In this document: one piece after another, positions 29,097 through 56,694 of the stretch
Layout: every line of letters starts with the position of its first letter
Position numbering within the stretch: the first letter of the stretch is position 1
Assembly: GCA_022897995.1 (NCBI GenBank)
Contig: GCA_022897995.1_4763.1
Direction: 5' to 3' (one strand)
Length of the DNA stretch: 64,000 nt
DNA from: a phage
Notes under the pieces: model-generated
Told to the model about the DNA's origin: nothing
What the model saw: the letters and a program-made list of their open reading frames with translations, nothing else
The model's database searches: none
Made by a program: the position numbers and the translations under genes

Positions 29097-30505
29097 TTAA
29101 AACTATCTTTTCACAGTTGATTTACAATGGCGCATTCTTTACGAATGTATGGCCTCACCTTAAAGCGGACTACTTCACCGAAGACGAAGAAAAACTGATT
29201 TATAAGCTGATTAAAAAGCACGTAGACGAATATTCCAATATTCCTACGCCAACTGCATTACAGATTGCTTTAGACAAGGAGAGAGGCAATCAGACAACAT
29301 ATGAAGGGGCTAAAACTCTTCTTGATTCGCTTGAGAATACACCGGAAGACCTTGATTGGTTAATGAAGGAAACAGAAAAATTTATCCGTGACCGAGCTAT
29401 GTATAATGCAATGTCACGGGCACTAGAGATTCAGGCGAACGCACAACTACCAAAAGAGAAACAGAATAAGAAATTGCCGAGTGAGGGTGCTATTCCTGAG
29501 ATCATGCAGGAAGCACTATCCATTACGTTTGATTCTGATGTAGGTCATGACTGGTTTAATGACTTTGAAAAACGATTCTTGCTATATCAGACTAAGGCGA
29601 ATAAGATCCCGTTTAAGCTGCCGATGTTGAATAAAATCACGAAAGGAGGGGCGGAAAGAAAAACGCTAAATGTGTTGCTTGCTGGTGTAAACGTTGGTAA
29701 ATCGCTTGGACTGTGTTCTCTTGCTGCGGATTATATGGAATGTGGTTATGATGTATTGTATATCTCAATGGAGATGGCAGAGCATGTAGTAGCAAAACGT
29801 ATCGACGCAAACTTGCTTGACATTACATTAGATGAATTGGATAATGGTAATGTTTCTTTTGCGGAATATTCCGCACGCATGAAGCGTGTTAAGAATAAGA
29901 AGATCGGAGATCGTCCGGTTGGAAAATTGATGATCAAGCAGTATCCGACTGGTGGCGCGAACTCCAATCACTTTGAGGCGTTAATGAATGAATTGCGACT
30001 CAAGAAACAGTTTAAACCTGATGTTGTGATTGTTGACTATCTGGGGATTTGCGCATCGTCTCGCTTGCGTGTATACTCTGAAAATAGTTACACACTAGTT
30101 AAGGCGATTGCGGAAGAACTGCGAGGATTTTTTGTTAAGTGGGATGTTGTTGGTTGGACTGCGGCACAGACTACCCGCGCGGGTTGGGATGCTTCCGACC
30201 TTAACATGAGTGATACCGCTGAATCAGCAGGTCTTCCGGCTACTGCCGACTTTATGTTGGGTGTTATCGAAACCGAAGACCTGGCTAAAATGGGCGTCCA
30301 ACTCATGAAGCAGATCAAGTCTCGTTACGGTGATAAGAACTATTATTCACGGTTTAACGTTGGTGTGAAGAAAGGCAATCAGCGTTGGTATGAAGTACCA
30401 AACCAGATCGCAGATCAGGAGAATGCACAAGTTAAACCACAAAGCGCACAGCAAGCCGAGAAACGAGAAAAACTCGACGAGCTAGCAAATAACATGACTT
30501 TCTAA
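29093..30505 (+). CDS. 41: replicative helicase gp41 (DnaB-like)
   Basis: 470 aa; Walker A LAGVNVGKS, Walker B VVIVDY, C-terminal RecA-like fold motifs. Confidence 0.9.
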   Translation: MIKTIFSQLIYNGAFFTNVWPHLKADYFTEDEEKLIYKLIKKHVDEYSNIPTPTALQIALDKERGNQTTYEGAKTLLDSLENTPEDLDWLMKETEKFIRDRAMYNAMSRALEIQANAQLPKEKQNKKLPSEGAIPEIMQEALSITFDSDVGHDWFNDFEKRFLLYQTKANKIPFKLPMLNKITKGGAERKTLNVLLAGVNVGKSLGLCSLAADYMECGYDVLYISMEMAEHVVAKRIDANLLDITLDELDNGNVSFAEYSARMKRVKNKKIGDRPVGKLMIKQYPTGGANSNHFEALMNELRLKKQFKPDVVIVDYLGICASSRLRVYSENSYTLVKAIAEELRGFFVKWDVVGWTAAQTTRAGWDASDLNMSDTAESAGLPATADFMLGVIETEDLAKMGVQLMKQIKSRYGDKNYYSRFNVGVKKGNQRWYEVPNQIADQENAQVKPQSAQQAEKREKLDELANNMTF

Positions 30506-45808: not shown

Positions 45809-46171
45809 ATGCTAGGTCATTCTAAAATAGAAGATTGCTCATTCAGAGCAATGAAAGATGATTTTTCGGTCCTGTACGCGTCTATCCGAGAGTTGTTTGT
45901 AGATTTTAAGCAATTCAGAGAATACAAAGGCGTTAAGATGCGGGAGTGGGTATTCTGGCCTTTCTATATCATTACTCTGTTTTCTATGGTATTTTGTTTT
46001 GTCGGGATCTCTATCGCTAGTTTTGTCACTTGCGTTTTCCTGATTATCAGGTGTATCATGTTTGCTTTGATTGCTGCCCCGTTTATTGTGTCAATCCTTC
46101 CGTTAAAATGGCTATTGGATTGGGCTGATAAATCTGATAAAGTAAAGAATGTGATTTGTAAGCGTGTATGA
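45809..46171 (+). CDS. hypothetical membrane protein
   Basis: Hydrophobic helices WVFWPFYIITLFSMVFCFVGISIASFV and IMFALIAAPFIVSIL. Confidence 0.4.
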   Translation: MLGHSKIEDCSFRAMKDDFSVLYASIRELFVDFKQFREYKGVKMREWVFWPFYIITLFSMVFCFVGISIASFVTCVFLIIRCIMFALIAAPFIVSILPLKWLLDWADKSDKVKNVICKRV

Positions 46172-46178
46172 GGTGAAG

Positions 46179-47543
46179 ATGGATAAAATTAGTCAAATTG
46201 TAAACACATTTACTTACCGCAGCCTTGAAAGCATTGTACATAATGAAGCTAAGGAATATGCGATCTATTCTGCCGAGGAACGCGGGATTCCTCAATTAGT
46301 GGATGGGCTTAAACCAGTTCAACGCTTTGTTATGGAGTGCGCACTTCAAAAGAGTAAAGGCGACCGTAAGAAATTCCGTAAGATGGCAGATATTGGATCT
46401 GGTGTTGCTGAGTTGGGTTATCACCACGGGGAAACTAATGCCGTAGAAGCCGGATCACTCATGGCGAATACATGGAGCAATAATACTCCACTGCTTGACG
46501 GTCAAGGTAACTTCGGATCGCGTTTAGTCCAGAAAGCAGGTGCGGCACGTTATATCTTTGCTCGTGTTCATGAAAACTTCTTTAAAATCTATAAAGATAT
46601 GAATTGCGCACCTAAACACGAAGATCTGGAACACATCCCGCCAGTGTTCTACTTGCCAGTTGTGCCAATGGTATTGGCTAATGGTATTAGTGGTATTGCT
46701 ACAGGGTATAAAACTGACATTTTACCGCATTCACTGGAAAGCCTTATTGAATGCACAGAGCTAGCACTTGCCGGAAAACTGGATAAAGAACCTAGTGTTC
46801 AATTCCCGAAATTCACGGGTAAAGTTATCCCTCGTGATGACCGAGATGGTGTCATTCTTGAGGGTACATATGAACTAAACGGCAAGACTAAGCTGACAAT
46901 ATCAGAAGTTCCTTATAAGTTCGACCGTGAAGAATATGTAGCGGTACTGGATGCACTGGAAGAAAAAGATCTGATTGTCTCATATAATGACCGTTGCTCT
47001 AAGGATGGATTCAGATTTGAAGTAACACTGAAACGCGATTATTTCAAAAGCGAAGATGAATCCGCTCGACATGAGCAAATCATGAAGGATTTTAAACTAA
47101 CGCAGTTAGTAGCCCAGAATATCGTAGTAGTTAACGAACGTGGTTTAGTTGAAGTATTCGAGAAAGCTAGCGACCTGATCCGTCGATTCGTCGAAATCCG
47201 ATTAGGGTATGTCGATAAACGCATTGAATTGATGCAAGCGGAAACGCTGGAAGCATACAATTATGCAATGGCTAAAGCCGAATTTATCGATCGCGTAATT
47301 AAGGGCGAAATCGAGCTACAGGGCAAGAAAAAGGCCGAGGTAATGCAATCCATCAATGGACATGAAAAACTGCGTCCATACGCCGATAAGCTAGTTTCTA
47401 TGCCATTGTATAGCGTTACTCAAGAAGAGTATGATCGACTGGTCAAAGATGCCGATAAACATCATAGTGAATATGAGTATTGGACAAAGACGACCGCAAT
47501 GAAGGAATATAAGAAAGATCTTAAAGAACTTAAGAAGGGTTGA
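46179..47543 (+). CDS. 52: DNA topoisomerase II medium subunit gp52 (GyrA-like)
   Basis: GLKPVQRFV, LGYHHGE, ANTWSNNTPLLDGQGNFGSR match remembered T4 gp52. Confidence 0.9.
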   Translation: MDKISQIVNTFTYRSLESIVHNEAKEYAIYSAEERGIPQLVDGLKPVQRFVMECALQKSKGDRKKFRKMADIGSGVAELGYHHGETNAVEAGSLMANTWSNNTPLLDGQGNFGSRLVQKAGAARYIFARVHENFFKIYKDMNCAPKHEDLEHIPPVFYLPVVPMVLANGISGIATGYKTDILPHSLESLIECTELALAGKLDKEPSVQFPKFTGKVIPRDDRDGVILEGTYELNGKTKLTISEVPYKFDREEYVAVLDALEEKDLIVSYNDRCSKDGFRFEVTLKRDYFKSEDESARHEQIMKDFKLTQLVAQNIVVVNERGLVEVFEKASDLIRRFVEIRLGYVDKRIELMQAETLEAYNYAMAKAEFIDRVIKGEIELQGKKKAEVMQSINGHEKLRPYADKLVSMPLYSVTQEEYDRLVKDADKHHSEYEYWTKTTAMKEYKKDLKELKKG

Positions 47544-47743
47544 TTATGAAAGAATATCCAGAAGGCGGTTATATTGCATTTCTGTACAACAATAAAAAGA
47601 TTGTGCCAATTGTCGTTGAAACACTGGAAGAATCCAACCGGATCACCAGTGAATCTCTGAGCAAATTAGCAGAGATGACAAACACGCCAGAACACAGAGC
47701 AAAGATCGACAACTTGATGAAAGAATTATCAGAGAGGAAATAA
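47540..47743 (+). CDS. hypothetical protein
   Basis: 67-aa ORF overlapping gp52 stop. Confidence 0.35.
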   Translation: MIMKEYPEGGYIAFLYNNKKIVPIVVETLEESNRITSESLSKLAEMTNTPEHRAKIDNLMKELSERK

Positions 47744-47746
47744 ATT

Positions 47747-48142
47747 ATGACTGAACGACGCATCACTTCAAATGGTTTGGGTACTCATCATGCATGGATG
47801 GTTGACCCAGACAAAAATCCTTATAAACTTTACGACACAACGATTAAACCGTGGAATAATGGCGTATGGAAAACACCGCCCACAACAGCACCTATTATGA
47901 CAGACCCGAAACCGTTTAGCCCGATGGCGGAACCAGTACAGATTAAGCCGTTACCTTACCAGATAACGACGAATAGCATCGCCAACAAACAAGAAAATGA
48001 TATTGATATGATCTACGAGATGATTAAACTTTGGCGTGATGTTTATCTGGGTGTTCTATGCAACACAGATAAAAGTGCACATGCGGCAGCGGTACTTGCA
48101 TCTCATGCGGTAGACGAAGCCAAAAAGAAATTTAGTAAGTAA
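47747..48142 (+). CDS. hypothetical protein
   Basis: 131-aa ORF. Confidence 0.4.
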   Translation: MTERRITSNGLGTHHAWMVDPDKNPYKLYDTTIKPWNNGVWKTPPTTAPIMTDPKPFSPMAEPVQIKPLPYQITTNSIANKQENDIDMIYEMIKLWRDVYLGVLCNTDKSAHAAAVLASHAVDEAKKKFSK

Positions 48143-48152
48143 CTGATTATTA

Positions 48153-48178
48153 AGCCGATCCGTGTGGTCGGCTTTTTT
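48153..48178 (+). terminator. intrinsic terminator
   Basis: AGCCGATCC-GTGTG-GTCGGCT then TTTTTT; near-identical stem to 8383-8404. Confidence 0.7.
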
Positions 48179-48192
48179 ATTTTAAAAAGTTG

Positions 48193-48221
48193 TTGACTTC
48201 CATAATCCATCATTGCATAAT
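48193..48221 (+). promoter_or_regulatory. sigma70-like early promoter
   Basis: TTGACT 48193-48198, 17-nt spacer, CATAAT 48216-48221. Confidence 0.5.
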
Positions 48222-48254
48222 ACACACCCATACCAAACGAAAGGAGAATCAAAG

Positions 48255-48527
48255 ATGAGCAACGAAAACAGCAAAGTGTTAGCAATTGCCGATAAAGTAG
48301 GTTACTGGAAATGTTGGGATGATATGGAGAAATTAGGCGGTCGATATCTCGATAACTTAGAGTTGCATTATTGCCAAGCGCGTAATGCAGAAGTTGCGGG
48401 AGTAGCAATTGAAGATATTCCGTCTAAGGTCTTCGGATTCTCTAAAGATGATACTTTAGAATATGTTTTCAAGGCTGTTATGGATCAAGCATGGGAAGAC
48501 GCAGAGACACGCGCTCTTGATTGGTGA
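48255..48527 (+). CDS. hypothetical protein
   Basis: ATG 48255 after AAGGAGAATCAAAG. Confidence 0.4.
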   Translation: MSNENSKVLAIADKVGYWKCWDDMEKLGGRYLDNLELHYCQARNAEVAGVAIEDIPSKVFGFSKDDTLEYVFKAVMDQAWEDAETRALDW

Positions 48528-48531
48528 TAAT

Positions 48532-48693
48532 ATGAACTGGTATAAAATTTGGAAAAATCAGGTGGAGGCTTATCTAGGGTATAAGCCCACCGACAAAGAA
48601 TTACTTGATGCAATGTACGAAGACGGCTTAAATCCGAAAGTAGCCGCGCAAGAATACGCGGAATGGGTGAAGGTCGAAAATAATTTAAAATAG
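48532..48693 (+). CDS. small hypothetical protein
   Basis: 53-aa ORF (MNWYKIWKNQ...). Confidence 0.3.
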   Translation: MNWYKIWKNQVEAYLGYKPTDKELLDAMYEDGLNPKVAAQEYAEWVKVENNLK

Positions 48694-48696
48694 TTG

Positions 48697-48731
48697 TTGA
48701 CGTAAAGAAATGGGAGTAGTATTATACTCCC
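48697..48731 (+). promoter_or_regulatory. early promoter with GGGAGTA/TACTCCC stem-loop (PeSL)
   Basis: TTGACG 48697-48702, 17-nt spacer, TATTAT 48720-48725. Confidence 0.6.
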
Positions 48732-48758
48732 ACACCGAAACGAAAGAAGGAGAATCAC

Positions 48759-48971
48759 ATGAAATCTATTGAGCAAGTAGTAACAGAATTTATGAGCTAC
48801 GAAGGAAACCGCATCTTTGGACGTTCTCAAGTTCGCGAGATCGTAGAAGAAGTTGCGGGAGAGTTTGCGGAATCTGGTCACGTTATCACGCAAGAACGTA
48901 AAGAAGAAGCAGTAAGCCAGATCATGGCTATGCAGAAAATGCGTATTAATGCACGAGCGGGTAAAAATTAA
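48759..48971 (+). CDS. hypothetical protein
   Basis: 70-aa ORF after AAGGAGAATCACAT. Confidence 0.4.
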   Translation: MKSIEQVVTEFMSYEGNRIFGRSQVREIVEEVAGEFAESGHVITQERKEEAVSQIMAMQKMRINARAGKN

Positions 48972-48978
48972 AAAGTAG

Positions 48979-49014
48979 TTGACACCGGATTATGGGAGTA
49001 GTAAGATACTCCCA
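48979..49014 (+). promoter_or_regulatory. early promoter with GGGAGTA/TACTCCC stem-loop (PeSL)
   Basis: TTGACA 48979-48984, 17-nt spacer, TAAGAT 49002-49007; hairpin identical to 4698-4718. Confidence 0.6.
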
Positions 49015-49041
49015 TCAAGACAAAACATTGAGGAATATATT

Positions 49042-49842
49042 ATGAAAAACATTATCGCTGCTATCGTTCTTTCTGCTACTGCTTTCGGTGCTAATGCTGC
49101 GTCCTTTGATTGCGCTAAAGCTACTACCAAATCAGAGAAGTTTATTTGTGCTAATGAGTCAATCTCCGCACTGGATTCGAAACTTCATGAAGTATATGTT
49201 AAAGCTGTTAAGATTGATCCGTCTCTGAAACAAGAGCAACGCAACTGGAATAAAACTGTTCGTGATACAATGATCAATATCGGGCAGATTCAGCCACTGG
49301 AGGCTGTATATAACGCTCAAATCCAAAACTTGATGAATGTATTACCTAAAGAAGAAACCTCGTCAGAAAGCGATTCAGAGACTTCTGTGAAGGTTGAAGA
49401 AGAACAACCGAAACAGGAAGAAAAAGTGGTGGAAGAACAGAAGAAAGAAGAAAAAATCTCTGGATCTATCACTTACCAGTGCATTGCAAAATTTACATGG
49501 AAAATCATTGATGGTATTGAAACAGACAGCCGCAAAGATCCATTGTATGGAAACTCTACTTATGGCAACAAGGGCGGAAAGCTGAAAATGACCATGACCG
49601 AAGGTGAATTGTCTTCTTTCGTATATGTTGATGAGCGCGAAGTGTTTAAATCAAATCTGACACGCAGCAAACAATATAAAAATATGGTTGTTGGTATGAG
49701 CAAACCGGATGTAGCAGGATACTTCAACGAGTACAAAATGTGGGTAGGGGAAAACGATGAAATCCGCTTTGAAGTCATCGAGAAAGGTCGCATTAGCTAT
49801 GATTATGGTACTCAATATGTTTGCGAATATAAGAAGGGTTAA
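49042..49842 (+). CDS. secreted protein with N-terminal DUF1311/LprI-like domain
   Basis: Signal peptide MKNIIAAIVLSATAFGANA; FDCAKATTKSEKFICANESISALDSKLHEVY matches the DUF1311 two-Cys signature; Glu/Lys-rich linker; unknown C-domain. Confidence 0.55.
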   Translation: MKNIIAAIVLSATAFGANAASFDCAKATTKSEKFICANESISALDSKLHEVYVKAVKIDPSLKQEQRNWNKTVRDTMINIGQIQPLEAVYNAQIQNLMNVLPKEETSSESDSETSVKVEEEQPKQEEKVVEEQKKEEKISGSITYQCIAKFTWKIIDGIETDSRKDPLYGNSTYGNKGGKLKMTMTEGELSSFVYVDEREVFKSNLTRSKQYKNMVVGMSKPDVAGYFNEYKMWVGENDEIRFEVIEKGRISYDYGTQYVCEYKKG

Positions 49843-50124
49843 ATGATGAAATTTAACAACATGAAGTTTAAAAAAGATTGGTGGGATGCTATGAGAGCTA
49901 ACGACCGAATCGGAATTGGAAAGGCAGAAAAGACAGTTGTTATTGTCAAGTATAAAGCGACGCAAGATCTTTTGATTAAGGAACTCATTCGAGCGGGTAA
50001 CTATCAAACACCGGAAGGTCTTATTGACATGATGGTTGATAACATGTATAGTGACGAACCACCAAACATTAAACAATATTACAAGCAGTATTACCGAAAG
50101 TGGCAGAAGTATAACCGAAAATAG
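49843..50124 (+). CDS. hypothetical protein
   Basis: 93-aa ORF. Confidence 0.35.
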   Translation: MMKFNNMKFKKDWWDAMRANDRIGIGKAEKTVVIVKYKATQDLLIKELIRAGNYQTPEGLIDMMVDNMYSDEPPNIKQYYKQYYRKWQKYNRK

Positions 50125-50147
50125 TTTGTTGACGTGAGGATTATATT

Positions 50148-50339
50148 ATGGTAATTTTTAATCGCGATGGTATCATAGTTCGGCAACACCCATTCCTTGA
50201 ATACTATCAGGTTGAACAATGGGGATACGGGGATTGCTCTCGATCATACGGTCAAAGCTGGGGATACCGTACAGTTTTTGAATCAACTAATATTAACAAA
50301 GTACGACAGAAAGTTTTAGAACTTCTTAACGATAAGTGA
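50148..50339 (+). CDS. hypothetical protein
   Basis: 63-aa ORF after TGAGGATTATATT. Confidence 0.3.
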   Translation: MVIFNRDGIIVRQHPFLEYYQVEQWGYGDCSRSYGQSWGYRTVFESTNINKVRQKVLELLNDK

Positions 50340-50351
50340 GGATATTATATC

Positions 50352-50720
50352 ATGGAAATTCAAAACAATTACGAAAAATGTGTTATTATCAATGATTTGC
50401 AACGTCAATTGCATCATTACGAAACCGATTATAAAACAGCAACCAAAACCGGAAAGTTGAAAGTGTGGGAAGTCTGGTATAACCGAAACTATCTGGGAAG
50501 CATCCACAAACTTGATCGCAGTGATGTTTATACAATGCATGTGGGCGCGTGTGGCGAATCGGATGTAGCATCTAATTTCATGGAAGCACTTGCATTCTAT
50601 GTAGAATATCTGGTAGACTATATCGAGTTGGAAGAGGAAGTTGTAGAATTGCTTCCTCCACCGGAAGAAGCACCGGAAGCAACGATCCTGAAAGCATTAA
50701 AGAAAATCTTTGTTAAGTGA
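50352..50720 (+). CDS. hypothetical protein
   Basis: 122-aa ORF. Confidence 0.4.
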   Translation: MEIQNNYEKCVIINDLQRQLHHYETDYKTATKTGKLKVWEVWYNRNYLGSIHKLDRSDVYTMHVGACGESDVASNFMEALAFYVEYLVDYIELEEEVVELLPPPEEAPEATILKALKKIFVK

Positions 50721-50728
50721 GGTGAACT

Positions 50729-51061
50729 ATGAAAAATGTACTGATTGTGTGGGAACTGATTCCAGAAACTACTGAATTATACATGGTACAGGTTGACAAT
50801 AAAGAATTTGAAATTCTGAAACGCGTCAACTGCAAATATATTAACATTGATGACATGACCCCAGAAATGGACTATGTAAACTATGCTCTCATGCAGCCTA
50901 GTTGGATTATGGATGAAACTAAAGCAGACGCCGAATCGCTGGGTGTACCGGAAGAAGTATTAGCGAAATGGCATCAATTCAAAGTTGAGATAAAAGAGGG
51001 TGAACCTTTTATCCCTAGCGGTATGATCGACGCGGTGATCGTAACAGGTTTTCATCTGTAA
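50729..51061 (+). CDS. hypothetical protein
   Basis: 110-aa ORF. Confidence 0.4.
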   Translation: MKNVLIVWELIPETTELYMVQVDNKEFEILKRVNCKYINIDDMTPEMDYVNYALMQPSWIMDETKADAESLGVPEEVLAKWHQFKVEIKEGEPFIPSGMIDAVIVTGFHL

Positions 51062-51074
51062 GGACATTTATACA

Positions 51075-51407
51075 ATGTTTAATTATGACAAATATGAATC
51101 ATGGAAAGCATCCGAACTGAAAGAGGCAGCGCGGTTAATCACACCGCGTCTTTATCCGGTACTGTTTAGCGCCGATAAAGTAACAAGGGAAGTAAACGAG
51201 GCGCTATCGGTTTTAGGTTATCTAATCGATAAAGTAGAGAAAACATCGGTATTCACAAATAGTATAGAATATACCCGTTATCGAGTGTTTTTAGATTCCT
51301 TGCTCGTTGTTATTAAAGCACTAAATGATCATAACTACACCATGAACATGACGAAAATAATCGACGAAGCAAGAATTATGACAGAGAATATTTTCGGAAG
51401 ATTTTGA
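51075..51407 (+). CDS. hypothetical protein, paralogue of 51522-51836
   Basis: C-terminus ...MTKIIDEARIMTENIFGRF resembles ...MNDIIIDARKLAENVYGKF of the next gene. Confidence 0.4.
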   Translation: MFNYDKYESWKASELKEAARLITPRLYPVLFSADKVTREVNEALSVLGYLIDKVEKTSVFTNSIEYTRYRVFLDSLLVVIKALNDHNYTMNMTKIIDEARIMTENIFGRF

Positions 51408-51521
51408 TTATGAAAGATGATGAATCATTGAAAATTGCACTGGTTATGCTATTACAAGGTATAGAATTAGCAAACCACGAAAAAATGTTGATACAACAGC
51501 GTGAAATTATGAGAGGTGATT

Positions 51522-51836
51522 ATGAGTGATATTAAAACCGATGAAGAAATGCAGGATATTGCAAAGGAATTAACCACCATCATGATCCGTCGCGGATCGT
51601 ATAATGCAAAAACCATTATCGATGAAGTCAATACAGCGGTTAAGGCAATCGAGAAAGTAAAGTCAGACGTTGCATTTGAAAGATACACATGGGAAGATAT
51701 TCGCAATCGAAGCCGCTATAATTTCTTTGTTGATTGTATTATGTCAATGACTGAACACTACGGGCATAGCATGAACGACATTATCATCGATGCGCGTAAA
51801 TTAGCAGAGAATGTTTACGGGAAGTTTCCAGAATGA
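51522..51836 (+). CDS. hypothetical protein, paralogue of 51075-51407
   Basis: ATG 51522; shared C-terminal motif with upstream gene. Confidence 0.4.
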   Translation: MSDIKTDEEMQDIAKELTTIMIRRGSYNAKTIIDEVNTAVKAIEKVKSDVAFERYTWEDIRNRSRYNFFVDCIMSMTEHYGHSMNDIIIDARKLAENVYGKFPE

Positions 51837-52081
51837 GATTAGAGCAAGCGATTGTTTATTTTGAGATGGGTTATGATATTGCTCGTGTAGAATGGGAAGA
51901 TGGTGATTTTGTACGATTGATCGATCTTCCAGAAACAGCTATTGCACTGGTCAAAGTAGAAAACGGCATACAACGCAATTACGCGTTTTCTGACGAAGAC
52001 AAACAAGCCGATGACTGGTACGCTACCTGTTTTCATCATACAGCGTCAAAATGTGATTCAGGGGCTTCTATGCGCCAATAA
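51833..52081 (+). CDS. hypothetical protein
   Basis: 82-aa ORF; last + strand gene before convergent terminator. Confidence 0.35.
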   Translation: MRLEQAIVYFEMGYDIARVEWEDGDFVRLIDLPETAIALVKVENGIQRNYAFSDEDKQADDWYATCFHHTASKCDSGASMRQ

Positions 52082-52086
52082 AAAAG

Positions 52087-52113
52087 AAGGGGAAGCCTTT
52101 CGGCTTCCCCTTT
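52087..52113. terminator. bidirectional intrinsic terminator between convergent early block and holin gene
   Basis: GGGGAAGCC-TTTC-GGCTTCCCC flanked by A-run (52081-52086) and T-run (52111-52113). Confidence 0.7.
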
Positions 52114-52116
52114 AAG

Positions 52117-52773
52117 TTATCTAATCCTTCCGAGGATTCTGGCAGATTGATTGCAAAGAGTATCTAAATTCTCAATGTCAATATCCGGTTTATTCTTCCA
52201 TGCAATGGAGATACTACCAGAATAGACATTATCGAGATTGAATATAGGGCAAGAATACATAAACCCTATATCGATACTCTCTAATTTCTTTTCTCTTGAT
52301 GGAATATACTGGAAATCTTTATCGGTAAAATATGATTTACCTAAAAGATGCCTACGATATTCTTCACTCGTTTTATTGATAGGGAATCCGCCTAAATTTT
52401 TTTCATCGATTGTGTGCGGTAGCTTTCCTTCATACGCCACCAAATCAACAAAATAGTTTAGGTTTTTCGGACGAAAACTAAAAACAGCAGAAAAATCGGC
52501 ATCAGCCGATACATGAACTATCTGTAACTGCTCCTGTGCTGCATTATCAAAATTGCGGTCTTTCTCTACCTGGAGAACGTGAGCATAAGTCTCATAACGA
52601 GTCTCTTTATACAATGCAAATAACTCGTTTTTACTATAAACGACAAATGCTAATATAGACAACACGACGGCAGCAAAAACACGAAGTACGAGCAACTCCG
52701 TGCTTTTAGTTGTGAAAATAGCGCGCAGGACATTTGAGATAGCAAAGTCTTTCCCTTTTTCAGAAACTTGCAT
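52117..52773 (-). CDS. t: holin T
   Basis: 218 aa as T4 T; LEQLQIVHVSADADFSAVFSFRPKNLNYFVDLVAYEGKLP and C-terminal ARILGR match remembered T4 holin. Confidence 0.85.
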   Translation of the reverse strand: MQVSEKGKDFAISNVLRAIFTTKSTELLVLRVFAAVVLSILAFVVYSKNELFALYKETRYETYAHVLQVEKDRNFDNAAQEQLQIVHVSADADFSAVFSFRPKNLNYFVDLVAYEGKLPHTIDEKNLGGFPINKTSEEYRRHLLGKSYFTDKDFQYIPSREKKLESIDIGFMYSCPIFNLDNVYSGSISIAWKNKPDIDIENLDTLCNQSARILGRIR

Positions 52774-52806
52774 ATAATGCCCTAAGATAACTATGACAGT
52801 GTACTC

Positions 52807-53046
52807 TTATTTAGGTAGTTGACTATCACTAGATTTATCTTGCTCGTTACTATCTTCTGACTGATCTTTATTAAACTCCTTATAAAGTTCTTCCACAAAA
52901 CGATCATCAATTGGCGTATTGGTATAAGCCGCAAGACGACGAGCGCAATAGAAGAAAATTTTAGTGAGCATCTTTTCACTAATTAACTTTGATAATAGTT
53001 TCATTCCGAAACTAGACAAAGCACCAATAACGATATTATAGACCAT
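52807..53046 (-). CDS. hypothetical protein
   Basis: 79-aa ORF with AAGGAG 8 nt upstream of ATG; between gene 38 and t. Confidence 0.4.
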   Translation of the reverse strand: MVYNIVIGALSSFGMKLLSKLISEKMLTKIFFYCARRLAAYTNTPIDDRFVEELYKEFNKDQSEDSNEQDKSSDSQLPK

Positions 53047-53109
53047 AGCCGTTTCTCCTTAGTAGTTCCCTTCCGTGGGAGTTTTCCTTAATTCTTTTTA
53101 TAATTACGT

Positions 53110-53889
53110 CTAAACAGCCGGTCCGTAAATAGCTCCGCGATTTATCCACGTTGGAGCAGACCCTATAACAGCATAACCAGCACCGCCGCCGTTATATTCT
53201 GTGCCGGTACCGTGAGTATTACATCTACCTCCTGCGGAGCCAACTTCGCCGCCATTCCCGCCTGTATATGCACTAAGAGACCCCTCACCGACAGATCCTG
53301 CACCCGGAGCGTAAATGGAGCCAGCGGTTGCACCAGAACTCATATGAGAGGAAGACCCGCCACCACCGAATGGGCGACCACCGCCACCACCAAATACTAG
53401 TCTACCCCTGTTACCGCCGCCACCGCCGCCACCGCCGCCAGCGATAGCACCGCCATTATTAATTCTTAGCCTCCCACCAATATCATTTTGAATACAATGA
53501 CCCCCAGATGAGCCAGGACTATTACTACCGCCATTACCGCCACGACCATACATCGTTACGCCGTGTATATTTAACTGAACATATTCATTTGGTGTATCCC
53601 CGTACATGAAGAATAAAGGAACATCTTTAGAATATGATACTAAATCACCTGTAATATTAAACACTATAGGTGTACTACCTGCCTCAAAGCATCTATCACG
53701 GAACCACTGACCATTGAAGTTATGGTCTGCTCCAAGTGTATGAATAATTTCTCGCGAGCGACCTGCAAATTGACTCATCCAGCAAGGAACACCCAATCTT
53801 AGTTGACCAGCCGCTTGACTCATCCACCGTTGTCCTGTTTCATTTGCGGCTGAACTTCCAATCCAACCGGGAACACCAACTACTGCCAT
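53110..53889 (-). CDS. 38: long tail fibre adhesin gp38 (T2-type, glycine-rich motifs)
   Basis: [71 protein letters not shown] and poly-Gly blocks match remembered T2/T6 gp38. Confidence 0.9.
53355..53450 (-). repeat. GGC/GGT-rich low-complexity repeat encoding the gp38 glycine-rich motifs
   Basis: CCACCGCCACCACC / CCGCCGCCACCGCC runs on + strand. Confidence 0.7.
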
Positions 53890-53903
53890 AATTTATACTC
53901 CAA

Positions 53904-53920
53904 AGGGGGCAATGCCCCCT
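53904..53920 (-). promoter_or_regulatory. G5/C5 stem-loop just upstream of gene 38 ribosome-binding site
   Basis: AGGGGGC-AAT-GCCCCCT between gp37 stop and gp38 start. Confidence 0.4.
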
Positions 53921-53925
53921 TGTTG

Positions 53926-56694
53926 TTAGAATTTAAAATATTTACTAATTTTGCGAGCAATTTTAGTAAAGAAAGGAGTTTTCAATTCTTTAATTTCTTC
54001 ACTCATTTCCTGAATAGCCTTAATTAAAAGAGCATTCACTGCCGAGTTAGAAATTGTCAGAACGTCAGATCCATCAACTTCAACTTTCGATACAGCTTCC
54101 GGCAATTCTTTTTCAAGATCCTGAGCAATAATACCAGCTTCACGTTTAATCACACTACGATCTTTAATAGACTTAACTTTATCGTAAGTATAAACTTTCA
54201 GACGGCATACTTTTTCAAGTGCTCCGTTTTCTAACTCTTCTTTATTAATCTTAAGACGGTCATCAGAACGAATATAAACATCGTTAAAGTTACCATTACC
54301 AGGACAGTAAAAAGTACCATCATGATGGAACTCGAATACAGCTTGAGGATGACCAGCCGCTGGCGATGCCTCCGCAGATCCAACACGAATAATTGCTTGT
54401 CCCCAATTGTTAGGAACACGACGCATACCAAAATCGACGGCAGTTGTATATCCTTGATTGGTGATTAAACTTCTGCCTTTAATAATTGGGTAATAACTGT
54501 CTGGTCCAACATAGCCGTGGTCAACAAATATCGGCGCTTCTAATCCCCATTGGTCGTTCCAACTTCCAGATTGGCTAGCAGTCCAACGTTCACCATGAAC
54601 ATAGAATCGAACGTTATTGACATGAGTCATTTCGATGCCTTTTGGACTTAGTGCGATATCCCCCGCGTTTGTAATGTATATGGCAGCATTAGTAGCATAA
54701 CTATAGAACGCTAATCCATTATCAGCACCACCTTTACCGATATACCAGTTGTTATTATCAGCACAAGTACCCAACAAATATACCGACGAATCTCCCGTTT
54801 CAGCATTAATGGTAATAGCGTCAGAACCACGATTAACTTTCAGTTTCCCAAAGAATGTATTTTGAATGGTGTTATCACCTTTACGCTCAAATTCGGCTAA
54901 AAATCCTTTTGAGTCACGAAGACTTAAAACGTTATTTCGACCTATATTGCTTGCCCCCCAATGGACGATTTCCATATAGTCCATAGATTGACGAGAACCA
55001 GCTTTAAAGAAAAGATTGTCCTCAAGACGAGTGCTGCCATCAATTCCAAGATGCAAACAACGAGCGGTTTCAGTACCACCTAAATATAATCCACCGTCCG
55101 CAAAATTATAGCTGAATGGTCTGCGATTATTCCAACTACCAAAAGAATCTTTTAAATTGGTAGTAAGAATATGGAAATTAGAACCATCATTGCGTAACAT
55201 CAAACCATAGTTACCGCCTTTGACAGCCAAACGAGCATTTTCAGACAATGCAACTTCGCCATTCATTACAATTTTCTGGCCTTTACCACCAGAAATCTGT
55301 AATTCACCGTTTTCGAGCAAGTTTATCGAGTTTTGACCGTTATCGTTCCACCAAATAAAATCTTTGGTCTGACCATCACCGAAACCAAACCAGCCATTAC
55401 GAACATCTTGTCCAGTGCGATAATCCATAAAATTAAAATGGCTTGCTTCGTTTGGTCCTCGACGAATGTCAATACCGGCATTACCAACACCACCATCCAA
55501 CGTTAATCTCTTGACATGTAACCCGGTTACAGCCGAAAGCAATAATTCCTGACTTGTATCTTCGTATCCAGTAGCAAGACGATATGAGTTAGCATCAACT
55601 GTCTCATGCCAGATAGTGGCAGGAGCACAACTACGGAAGCGACGCAACATCTTTTTAGCATTTGTCGGTTGTTCGTTCAAATGCTCAATGTCATATTGGC
55701 CTTGAGAATTAGCACCAAAATTTAATGTCCCGTGGTTGCGATGAGTACTAAATGAAGTGATTGTATAAGCATCGAACTTTGTTTCAGCTTCCGGTAATTG
55801 ACCTCCTATAAATTGTGGTTTATCATATAAAGTCAGGTTAACATCAGGGCTAGTCTGGTATTCAGCCAACACAAATCCAGTATGACCGGAATAGCTACCG
55901 TATATATCATAAGAGTCACCACCAGTAGGAATAGCACAAAACTTCTGGTCTATATACCAGATGGTCATATAAGCGTTAAACACAACACCAACCGGATTTC
56001 CATTCCCGCTACGCAGAACCAATTCAATAATATTAGCTTGCCCGGTCTGTCCTACATTATAACCATTACCACCAACCAATCTAATTTTAGCACTACGCCC
56101 ATATTGTTGTGGTAGATATACTGTCGCGATTTTAAACCAACCGAACTCAATTCCAAAATCAAGTGTCTTTTGGAACATCCGATCTACTTCTTGTTTGCTG
56201 TACACATTCAATTCCGACGGACTAGGCTTATCACCTTCGTGATACATGCGATATGAATATGCCAATACACCATCAGCGTTATAACCATAGGTTTTTACAG
56301 TAGGAACAACGTTAGAACCATAAGTAAAATCCAACCCACGAGCATGATTTATACCGCTAGGATGGGGAATATGCAAAGCCAATGCTAGATGACCATCCAT
56401 ATCATTAGTACGAAATGCCCCAAATTTATCAAGATTTCGTGAGGTCGGGTCATCGAAATAGTTTGCGGTATTACTCCACACAAGGTCATCCACAACCACG
56501 CGGCCTCTTACATCAAAGCCTTTGTCATAAACAGGAGGGCAGCTTAAATTAACAATTTGCCCATCATCATTTTTTGTAAGCAGATATTGGTCTGCTAAGT
56601 TAATTGCCAACTCTCCCGGATTCATCGTACCAGCATCCGGTTTACGTCCGGCTGCGCTAGTGCGTTTAAACTGGATTCTGTTTAAATCTGCCAT
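53926..56694 (-). CDS. 37: long tail fibre distal subunit gp37 with C-terminal intramolecular chaperone-like domain
   Basis: N-terminus MADLNRIQFKRTSAAGRKPDAGTMNPGELAINL as T4 gp37; C-terminus ...EAGIIAQDLEKELPEAVSKVEVDGSDVLTISNSAVNALLIKAIQEMSEEIKELK resembles endosialidase-type auto-chaperone. Confidence 0.85.
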   Translation of the reverse strand: MADLNRIQFKRTSAAGRKPDAGTMNPGELAINLADQYLLTKNDDGQIVNLSCPPVYDKGFDVRGRVVVDDLVWSNTANYFDDPTSRNLDKFGAFRTNDMDGHLALALHIPHPSGINHARGLDFTYGSNVVPTVKTYGYNADGVLAYSYRMYHEGDKPSPSELNVYSKQEVDRMFQKTLDFGIEFGWFKIATVYLPQQYGRSAKIRLVGGNGYNVGQTGQANIIELVLRSGNGNPVGVVFNAYMTIWYIDQKFCAIPTGGDSYDIYGSYSGHTGFVLAEYQTSPDVNLTLYDKPQFIGGQLPEAETKFDAYTITSFSTHRNHGTLNFGANSQGQYDIEHLNEQPTNAKKMLRRFRSCAPATIWHETVDANSYRLATGYEDTSQELLLSAVTGLHVKRLTLDGGVGNAGIDIRRGPNEASHFNFMDYRTGQDVRNGWFGFGDGQTKDFIWWNDNGQNSINLLENGELQISGGKGQKIVMNGEVALSENARLAVKGGNYGLMLRNDGSNFHILTTNLKDSFGSWNNRRPFSYNFADGGLYLGGTETARCLHLGIDGSTRLEDNLFFKAGSRQSMDYMEIVHWGASNIGRNNVLSLRDSKGFLAEFERKGDNTIQNTFFGKLKVNRGSDAITINAETGDSSVYLLGTCADNNNWYIGKGGADNGLAFYSYATNAAIYITNAGDIALSPKGIEMTHVNNVRFYVHGERWTASQSGSWNDQWGLEAPIFVDHGYVGPDSYYPIIKGRSLITNQGYTTAVDFGMRRVPNNWGQAIIRVGSAEASPAAGHPQAVFEFHHDGTFYCPGNGNFNDVYIRSDDRLKINKEELENGALEKVCRLKVYTYDKVKSIKDRSVIKREAGIIAQDLEKELPEAVSKVEVDGSDVLTISNSAVNALLIKAIQEMSEEIKELKTPFFTKIARKISKYFKF

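Follow-up and report, generated by a model that had tools for sequence, protein, structure and literature searches.

A Krischvirus gene for a predicted periplasmic protein with a constant DUF1311 head and an exchangeable C-terminal barrel, shared with a prophage in Escherichia coli hicB

The 64,000-nucleotide stretch of phage DNA analysed here (contig GCA_022897995.1_4763.1 of GenBank assembly GCA_022897995.1, referred to as the window) comes from a Krischvirus, a T4-type coliphage of the RB49/Phi1/GEC-3S kind. On its plus strand, an open reading frame (ORF) that runs from 49042 (ATG) to 49840–49842 (TAA) encodes a product of 266 residues; it is a real gene and the orthologue of ORF262 of Phi1 and RB49. 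The product comprises a signal peptide, an N-terminal domain of the DUF1311/LprI type (the head), a charged linker and a C-terminal domain (C-domain) predicted to form a β-barrel. The head is nearly constant among homologues, the barrel is replaced wholesale between them, and the gene is common to a virulent and a temperate phage. The reading preferred for this architecture, at a probability of about 0.4, is that of a periplasmic exclusion or immunity factor, analogous to known DUF1311 immunity proteins, in which the barrel would set specificity.

Already known are the gene itself, its annotation as DUF1311 and the PeSL promoter element in front of it. The product is 97–99% identical to “hypothetical proteins” of E26, GEC-3S, MIZ2/3/6, Phi1 (ORF262), ELT3 and PHB13 and ~66% identical to the RB49-type orthologue. 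At that level of identity the window gene would count among the divergent genes of the kind reported in the Phi1/RB49 paper, in which 23 such genes were counted and no domain-level analysis was given. In a 2006 survey, a weak DUF1311 match (E 0.2) was listed for an RB49 ORF numbered 260c, which is probably the orthologue of the window gene. A search of the literature returned no description of the orphan barrel, the pattern of an invariant head with a swappable tail, the intragenic recombination borders or the exchange with a prophage in hicB.

The C-domain is the most informative part of the protein. In 20 homologues, residues 1–105 are 89–100% identical to the window protein, whereas the C-domain is 23–47% identical, one near-identical allele (82%) being the exception. 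Among five Krischvirus copies, the head carries 0–1 non-synonymous versus 3–10 synonymous changes, and for all pairs the synonymous divergence (dS) is 0.05–0.24 and the ratio of non-synonymous to synonymous divergence (dN/dS) is 0–0.22. As judged from these substitutions, the head is under strong purifying selection; its conservation does not merely reflect youth, because synonymous changes have accumulated. At the DNA level, both flanks of the gene in the window are 96–100% identical to those in RB49, JSE and FL04. Identity to these three phages drops to 30–60% from ~49400, within the linker, stays low across the barrel and the downstream gene, ORF261, and is regained at ~50100–50140. For comparison, the mean protein identity of Phi1 and RB49 is 95.8% genome-wide.

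At least three classes of barrel allele, designated a, b and c, can be distinguished. Classes a and b align with each other (BLAST E 1e-10 to 1e-31). Class c resembles them only over its first ~21 residues (x-Y-x-C...IDG) and in a terminal Y-x-C; past those first 21 residues, hhalign comparison of classes a and b with class c is not significant. The AlphaFold2 (AF2) model of class c is likewise all-β; that class c is homologous to the other two is unproven. In the Krischviruses, class a is found in the window and Phi1, class b in RB49 and FL04, and class c in JSE.

The borders of the divergent block lie inside the gene, in the linker, and in the next gene, so that the swapped unit is one protein domain and not an entire ORF. 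In the proposed mechanism, the barrel would behave as a cassette, exchanged through recombination between the DNA that codes for the linker and the 5′ end of ORF261, which would serve as the right homology arm. ORF261 lies within the same divergent block (38–85% nucleotide identity to RB49 and JSE) and is probably not part of the same functional unit as the barrel gene. Its variants are out of step with the barrel types: ORF261 of JSE is close to that of the window, and the JSE barrel is of the most distant type, c.

Of 5426 complete E. coli genomes, 26 have a chromosomal copy of the gene, which is intact in each of them. The DNA of these copies is ~95% identical to the window, and this identity is confined to the stretch between the start codon and the linker (49036/49042 to 49412–49455). 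In every genome whose surroundings were examined, the copy adjoins hicAB, yncJ and rlhA. In E. coli O55:H7 DEC5A (NZ_CP038394.1, 2722000–2758500), a siphovirus-like prophage of ~35 kb resides inside hicB, which is present as two pseudogene halves; a serine recombinase is encoded at one end of the prophage and the LprI-like gene at the other, attachment-site end, which is a typical moron position. The same prophage also codes for a metallohydrolase of the M15 type (D-Ala-D-Ala carboxypeptidase family).

The barrels of the prophage copies fall into the same classes as those of the phages, namely a2 in DEC5A, b3 in 266917_2 and H2, and c′ in E275a, so that classes a, b and c are all found in both lineages. 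Directly 3′ of the prophage gene stands a stump of ORF261 of 25 codons (MQFNSMKITQKWWDAMKANHQNDIN, followed by a stop), and the GC content of the prophage gene is 39%, similar to the 40.7% of the phage. The stump and the phage-like GC content indicate that the prophage probably captured the gene from a Krischvirus-like phage, and the linker-coding DNA and the stump would then provide homology arms for later cassette exchange. In H2 (NZ_CP028733.1) the head is mosaic as well, with the Krischvirus-like GANA...CAKA in place of the GADA...CTKA seen elsewhere, combined with a b3 barrel, which suggests that recombination between phage and prophage may be continuing.

Export of the protein was predicted in the initial annotation from a Sec signal peptide cleaved after ANA, and both the sequence pattern and the comparative evidence agree with it. 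The N-terminal segment, MKNIIAAIVLSATAFGANA, is built of n-, h- and c-regions as in a Sec signal peptide, with K2, an uncharged hydrophobic core and A-N-A at positions −3 to −1. A crude heuristic applied to the 153 ATG-started ORFs of at least 60 residues in the window finds a signal-peptide pattern in three, namely this gene and two antisense ORFs. Distant homologues, Klebsiella F48 gp108, Aeromonas CC2_301, Salmonella SSU5_101 and P0021, have different pre-sequences that all end in AxA followed by ASFDC, and the conservation of this junction despite the differing pre-sequences is good comparative evidence for the cleavage site. There is no lipobox in the N terminus, MKNIIAAIVLSATAFGANA followed by ASFDC. 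Export to the periplasm is therefore very probable, and the pair of cysteines in each of the two domains agrees with it.

The mature N-terminal domain contains the peptide on which the DUF1311 assignment had first been based, FDCAKATTKSEKFICANESISALDSKLHEVY (residues 22–52), and the assignment of this two-cysteine domain is upheld by Pfam: residues 24–76 match PF07007 (LprI) with 24.3 bits (E 4.4e-5) for the full protein and the mature N-domain alone with 26.2 bits, above the gathering cut-off of 22 bits. PF07007 is also matched by five of six diverse phage N-domains, with a best E of 2e-7. The DUF1311 signature, C..E..IC....L..LD..L...Y ... QR.W, is found together with the cysteine pair behind the signal peptide, and Cys24, Cys36, D45, Y52, Q66, R67 and W69 are invariant in the window protein, F48, CC2, SSU5 and P0021. 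With the N-domain alone as the query, a word-indexed protein database gave no matches; a profile of six N-domains retrieved only short stand-alone or truncated DUF1311 proteins. Related proteins of 230–330 residues with the same order of head, linker and variable tail and an ASFDC start are encoded by Klebsiella phage F48, Aeromonas T4-like phages, the plasmid-prophage SSU5 and one metagenomic phage; from their composition, the tails of these proteins appear helical and contain cysteines.

The linker, described in the initial annotation as rich in Glu and Lys, is rich in Gln and Pro as well and is predicted to be disordered (AlphaFold2 pLDDT, the model's per-residue confidence score, <50 for residues 104–137). 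In the AlphaFold2 model of the window protein, for which a 20-sequence alignment was used as input, residues 141–263 form an eight-stranded antiparallel sheet or barrel at a pLDDT of ~85. The invariant positions across the C-domain alleles are C, D-G and C; the two cysteines, Cys147 and Cys261, are present in every allele within the predicted first and last strands, a placement that fits a disulfide clamping the modelled barrel.

The C-domain had been left unassigned, and it stays so: searches of Pfam, NCBIfam and PADLOC with it gave no match. A profile built from 12 C-domain alleles and compared with 1.84 billion representative proteins found no relatives outside its own family; three repetitive proteins retrieved in this search were judged spurious. 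By structure, Foldseek matches the barrel to NHBA, lipocalins, TbpB and fHbp (E 8e-4 to 1e-1), and a fold search of BFVD returned only the RB49 orthologue and unnamed barrels. A search of the Phi1 genome for a paralogue of the barrel found none. As modelled, the barrel is an orphan domain with a generic calycin-like or lipocalin-like fold. An identification of the C-domain as MliC, prompted by a resemblance (TYQC, SFVY, W..G.E, C), was rejected, as there is no sequence signal and the likeness is one of generic fold only. PF09864 (MliC) gives no match at E up to 10 with either the window protein or the 12 C-domain alleles, and comparison of the C-domain profile with PDB sequences found no MliC chain. 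The loop motifs S-x-S-G-A-x-Y and W/Y-x-x-K-G, which are invariant in three verified MliC/PliC sequences, occur in no C-domain allele.

A promoter cassette of its own had been proposed for the gene, and the cassette proves to be of a published type. PeSLs, sigma70-like promoters that overlap a conserved stem-loop and are repeated across the hyperplastic regions of the genome, act in RB49 and Phi1 as strong sigma70-like early promoters combined with terminator hairpins (PMC2839356). The cassette in front of the gene has this organisation: the stem-loop GGGAGTA-GTAAGA-TACTCCC overlaps the promoter TTGACA-N17-TAAGAT and is predicted to fold with a centroid energy of −13.6 kcal/mol. The composite motif TTGAC-N10-GGGAGTAGTANNATACTCCC occurs in four copies in the window (3772, 4683, 48697 and 48979) versus zero expected. 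From the PeSL motif, the gene is inferred to be expressed early. A longer ORF with a TTG start at 48979 is an artefact, because this TTG belongs to the −35 hexamer.

Modular shuffling by PeSLs has been described for RB49 and Phi1 (Arbiol et al. 2010), and the window offers both a parallel and a departure. The gene follows a PeSL within a hyperplastic region, and the window is without ORF263 and ORF263.1, both of which Phi1 and RB49 have between ORF264 and ORF262; their absence appears as an alignment gap at ~48892–48990, just upstream of the gene. The loss of the ORF263 region looks like a PeSL-mediated deletion or a cassette of the mini-circle type as described by Arbiol et al. In contrast to that shuffling, the exchange borders of the barrel are in the linker and in the next gene and not at the PeSLs.

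Functional clues come from studied DUF1311 proteins. In enterohaemorrhagic E. coli, the DUF1311 protein Etsi4 rescues the toxicity of Etse4, an experimental case of immunity to a periplasm-acting, cell-wall type VI secretion system (T6SS) effector. In addition, orphan LprI-domain immunity genes adjoin lysozyme-like effectors, the role in immunity being inferred from gene context in Pantoea and for WHIX effectors. By analogy, the lead that the window protein may bind an incoming cell-wall enzyme is reasonable. Similar to these immunity proteins, the window protein would be a periplasmic neutraliser of incoming cell-wall-targeting proteins, kept as an “orphan” protective gene. The T6SS immunity proteins differ in being single-domain and encoded beside effectors in T6SS islands, whereas the window protein is phage-borne, is without a neighbouring effector and has an additional polymorphic barrel. 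The E. coli copies have prophage genes and hicAB as neighbours, and neither a cognate effector next to them nor a T6SS island around them was found.

In the mechanism proposed, a soluble periplasmic protein would be made early in infection, and also by lysogens of the prophage integrated in hicB. After export its helical DUF1311 head would be held by a disulfide and joined, through a flexible and charged tether of ~35 residues, to an eight-stranded barrel clamped by another disulfide, and the protein would neutralise one that arrives in the periplasm from outside. Its target would most likely be a cell-wall-degrading or envelope-penetrating component of the tail tip of a superinfecting phage, e.g., a gp5-type lysozyme; a peptidoglycan hydrolase delivered by a T6SS or as a bacteriocin is an alternative. 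The invariant head would contribute an unvarying function, in that it either docks on a conserved component of the envelope or is itself the inhibitory fold, and the interchangeable barrel would confer target specificity. The binding partner and the protective phenotype are both postulated. Such a binder would explain the early expression, the retention in lysogens, the capture by a prophage, the purifying selection on the head and the cassette-like diversification of the tail. The T6SS immunity proteins in the DUF1311 family, retention at the attachment end of the prophage and the polymorphic C-domain favour a role in inhibition or immunity. A bolder version, in which a domain-swapping exclusion or immunity gene is traded between T4-type phages and a prophage, the barrel picks the tail-tip or hydrolase protein of a rival phage, or the effector of a rival bacterium, that is neutralised and lysogens refresh their cassette from infecting phages, is doubtful; if true, it would represent a periplasmic, protein-level analogue of polymorphic immunity loci.

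T4 Spackle (gp61.3) may be a functional analogue. Work on PDB entries 6x6o and 7cn6 reportedly established Spackle as an inhibitor of gp5, the tail lysozyme, of a superinfecting phage. The query sequence for Spackle was verified against PDB 6x6o, and homologues were found in 971 phage records; among the matches listed are T-even, Mosig- and Jiaoda-type phages. No Spackle homologue was detected by tblastn in the window or in the nearly whole Phi1 genome, and a match at 30158–30352 (E 0.02) is due to chance, because it lies in frame within the gp41 helicase gene. As gp5 of Phi1 carries a Phage_lysozyme domain (residues 189–320), a Spackle-like niche is open in the genus. Similar to Spackle, the window protein is a small phage protein that would be early, periplasmic and disulfide-bonded behind a signal peptide. 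The two have no sequence similarity, and the window protein gives no match at E up to 10 to PDB sequences, including the Spackle entries; Spackle is moreover a single helical domain of 97 residues that is not known to be polymorphic.

Several observations weigh against an exclusion or immunity factor. The PF07007 match is barely over the threshold and spans only positions 1–72 of the 106 in the profile, and the head is modelled by AlphaFold2 as four helices with a pLDDT of only ~60. The DUF1311 protein ScwA of Salmonella gave no protection from lysozyme. The structural matches of the barrel are generic, the best Foldseek E being 8e-4; hhalign of the barrel against a verified MliC alignment gives a probability of 0.3%, that is, no sequence kinship, and the SxSGAxY and TKG motifs are absent from the barrel. 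No gene for an effector, toxin or hydrolase is adjacent in the phage or the prophage, and a literature search found no experiment on the protein or its close homologues. Klebsiella phage F48 (vB_Kpn_F48) has both Spackle (gp103) and the two-domain DUF1311 protein (gp108), and therefore the two are not strict alternatives. The variability of the barrel is not limited to one end, with a peak at residues 206–227 and two later loops, and a clean mapping of variability to one end of the barrel was tested and not borne out. Lastly, the allele polymorphism is diversification or cassette exchange and does not in itself indicate the driver; the complete genomes hold only three allele classes, which are confounded with phylogeny.

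Receptor-blocking proteins are found in other phages, e.g., T5 Llp, and it is conceivable, although unlikely, that the barrel binds or masks a host envelope molecule such as a lipid-linked intermediate, a lipopolysaccharide or O-antigen precursor, a lipoprotein or the side that a receptor or porin turns to the periplasm. The surface would be altered or DNA entry blocked, and the barrel alleles would track variation among host strains rather than rival phages. The protein, however, lacks both a lipobox and a membrane anchor, no ligand-binding family is linked to the barrel by sequence, and different alleles are carried by phages that come from the same laboratory hosts, K-12 and B, which disfavours host-strain tracking. 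Modulation of host murein enzymes in the manner of ScwA, in which the head would bind or stabilise a lytic transglycosylase and the sacculus would be remodelled, is quite unlikely; the phage could benefit, for example, from larger cells, from tolerance while lysis is inhibited or from a final lysis made easier. Among soluble periplasmic DUF1311 proteins, ScwA alone has been studied in an enterobacterium; this disulfide-bonded protein raises the level of the lytic transglycosylase MltD and causes lysis on overproduction. An invariant head with dS of 0.05–0.24 fits a conserved host partner, and the gene shares its hyperplastic region with the holin gene t and rIIB. Similar to the window protein, ScwA (SL1344_0490) is of the soluble, periplasmic, disulfide-bonded DUF1311 type and horizontally acquired, but its architecture differs: it is all-helical, with 275 residues, four cysteines and a C-terminal DUF1311 domain, and no barrel or polymorphism is reported for it. 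Murein modulation would leave both the hypervariable barrel and the retention of the gene by the prophage in lysogens unaccounted for.

A genuine lysozyme inhibitor of the LprI/MliC kind, in which the barrel is an MliC/PliC domain that has diverged very far and blocks the active site of a c-type or phage-type lysozyme, is improbable. Mycobacterium tuberculosis LprI consists of a DUF1311 and an MliC domain, and in a secondary account (PMC7933661) its inhibition of lysozyme is ascribed to MliC. Both LprI and the window protein carry an export signal and have PF07007 at the N terminus, followed by a small C-terminal β-barrel, predicted in the latter. LprI, however, is a lipoprotein with a recognisable MliC barrel, whereas the window protein has a signal peptidase I site and an orphan barrel without MliC signal, and the long charged linker and extreme allelic variation are features of the window protein. 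MliC, PliC, PhiA and calycin barrels are eight-stranded and antiparallel, with ~100–120 residues and cysteines near the first and last strands, and the window barrel as modelled may resemble them in this, but there is no kinship in sequence or motif, and the structural scores are generic for small barrels. The initial annotation had suggested that a periplasmic, lysozyme-binding protein made early would be a candidate for superinfection exclusion or lysis-timing control. Binding of lysozyme rests on the family name, given that MliC is credited in LprI and that ScwA does not protect, and the label given at NCBI to the copies in E. coli, “lysozyme inhibitor LprI family protein”, is in itself no evidence of lysozyme inhibition; what stands is that DUF1311 proteins act as periplasmic immunity to cell-wall T6SS effectors. 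Control of lysis timing by inhibition of a lysozyme-type endolysin is unlikely, since the endolysin of Phi1 (ORF102) is a Peptidase_M15_4 enzyme and not a lysozyme. Finally, a constant head with a variable tail, and divergence that runs on into an abutting gene (TAA directly followed by ATG), are reminiscent of contact-dependent inhibition, Rhs and bacteriocin loci and raise the idea of a polymorphic toxin with ORF261 as its immunity protein. This pairing is highly improbable and was rejected, because ORF261 variants do not follow the barrel types and the prophage has the full gene with only a 25-codon stump of ORF261. Furthermore, ORF261 has no signal peptide and would occupy a different compartment, the barrel is unlike any toxin fold, and intact copies without ORF261 in 26 E. 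coli genomes suggest that the protein is not toxic.

Superinfection exclusion is poorly understood in T4-type phages outside the T-even group, and Phi1 has no recognisable Spackle. A secreted early product in which one module is frozen and the other is replaced wholesale, and which has been captured by a prophage, is a testable candidate for a gene of phage–phage or phage–bacterium conflict. If barrel swaps alter the specificity of exclusion, the evolution of specificity in periplasmic immunity could be followed in a simple system of two domains, and the gene would also be, as Krischviruses are used therapeutically, a marker relevant to the design of phage cocktails.

Table. Positions of the gene's parts and of adjacent elements in the window
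Feature	Position	Strand	Remarks
PeSL early-promoter cassette	48979–49013	+	−35 TTGACA 48979–48984, 17-nucleotide spacer, −10 TAAGAT 49002–49007
Shine-Dalgarno GAGG	49030–49033	+	8 nucleotides 5′ of ATG; read from sequence
Signal peptide, residues 1–19 (MKNIIAAIVLSATAFGANA)	49042–49098	+	predicted signal peptidase I cleavage before ASFDC
DUF1311/LprI-type helical domain, residues 20–102	49099–49347	+	contains Cys24, Cys36
Disordered Glu/Lys/Gln/Pro-rich linker, residues 103–139	49348–49458	+	left recombination breakpoint inside
Polymorphic C-terminal β-barrel domain, residues 140–266	49459–49839	+	8 predicted strands
ORF261, 93 residues, basic, without signal peptide	49843–50124	+	start abuts the stop of the gene (TAA, ATG)

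The reading frame of the initial annotation, 49042–49842, is retained as drawn, with its ATG 8 nucleotides behind GAGG and its product of 266 residues. The hyperplastic region in which the gene is located lies between the topoisomerase gene 52 (46164–47543) and the holin gene t (52117–52773, minus strand). The neighbours of the gene in the phage are phage ORFans, the topoisomerase gp52 and holin t. Upstream, the ORF264 homologue (48759–48971) is flanked on both sides by PeSLs, at 48697–48731 and 48979–49013.

Two observations concern relatives of the head in other genomes. In phage F48, gp108 sits between gp107 and gp109, both annotated as nucleoside triphosphate pyrophosphohydrolase (47701–54979), as if it had been inserted into or beside a split gene 56. 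On E. coli contig SQOY01000028 (16077–22452), a DUF1311 protein similar to SSU5_101, P0028, is encoded at the distal end of a lambdoid operon of the pL type that includes cIII, kil, a Rad52-like recombinase, a single-stranded DNA-binding protein (SSB) and an anti-RecBCD function; P0028 is probably cut off by the end of the contig. In the window itself, a second sharply divergent block is observed at ~51490–51840, over the ORF256 homologue (51516–51836), with 53–70% nucleotide identity to RB49, JSE and FL04 between flanks that are otherwise 95–100% identical.

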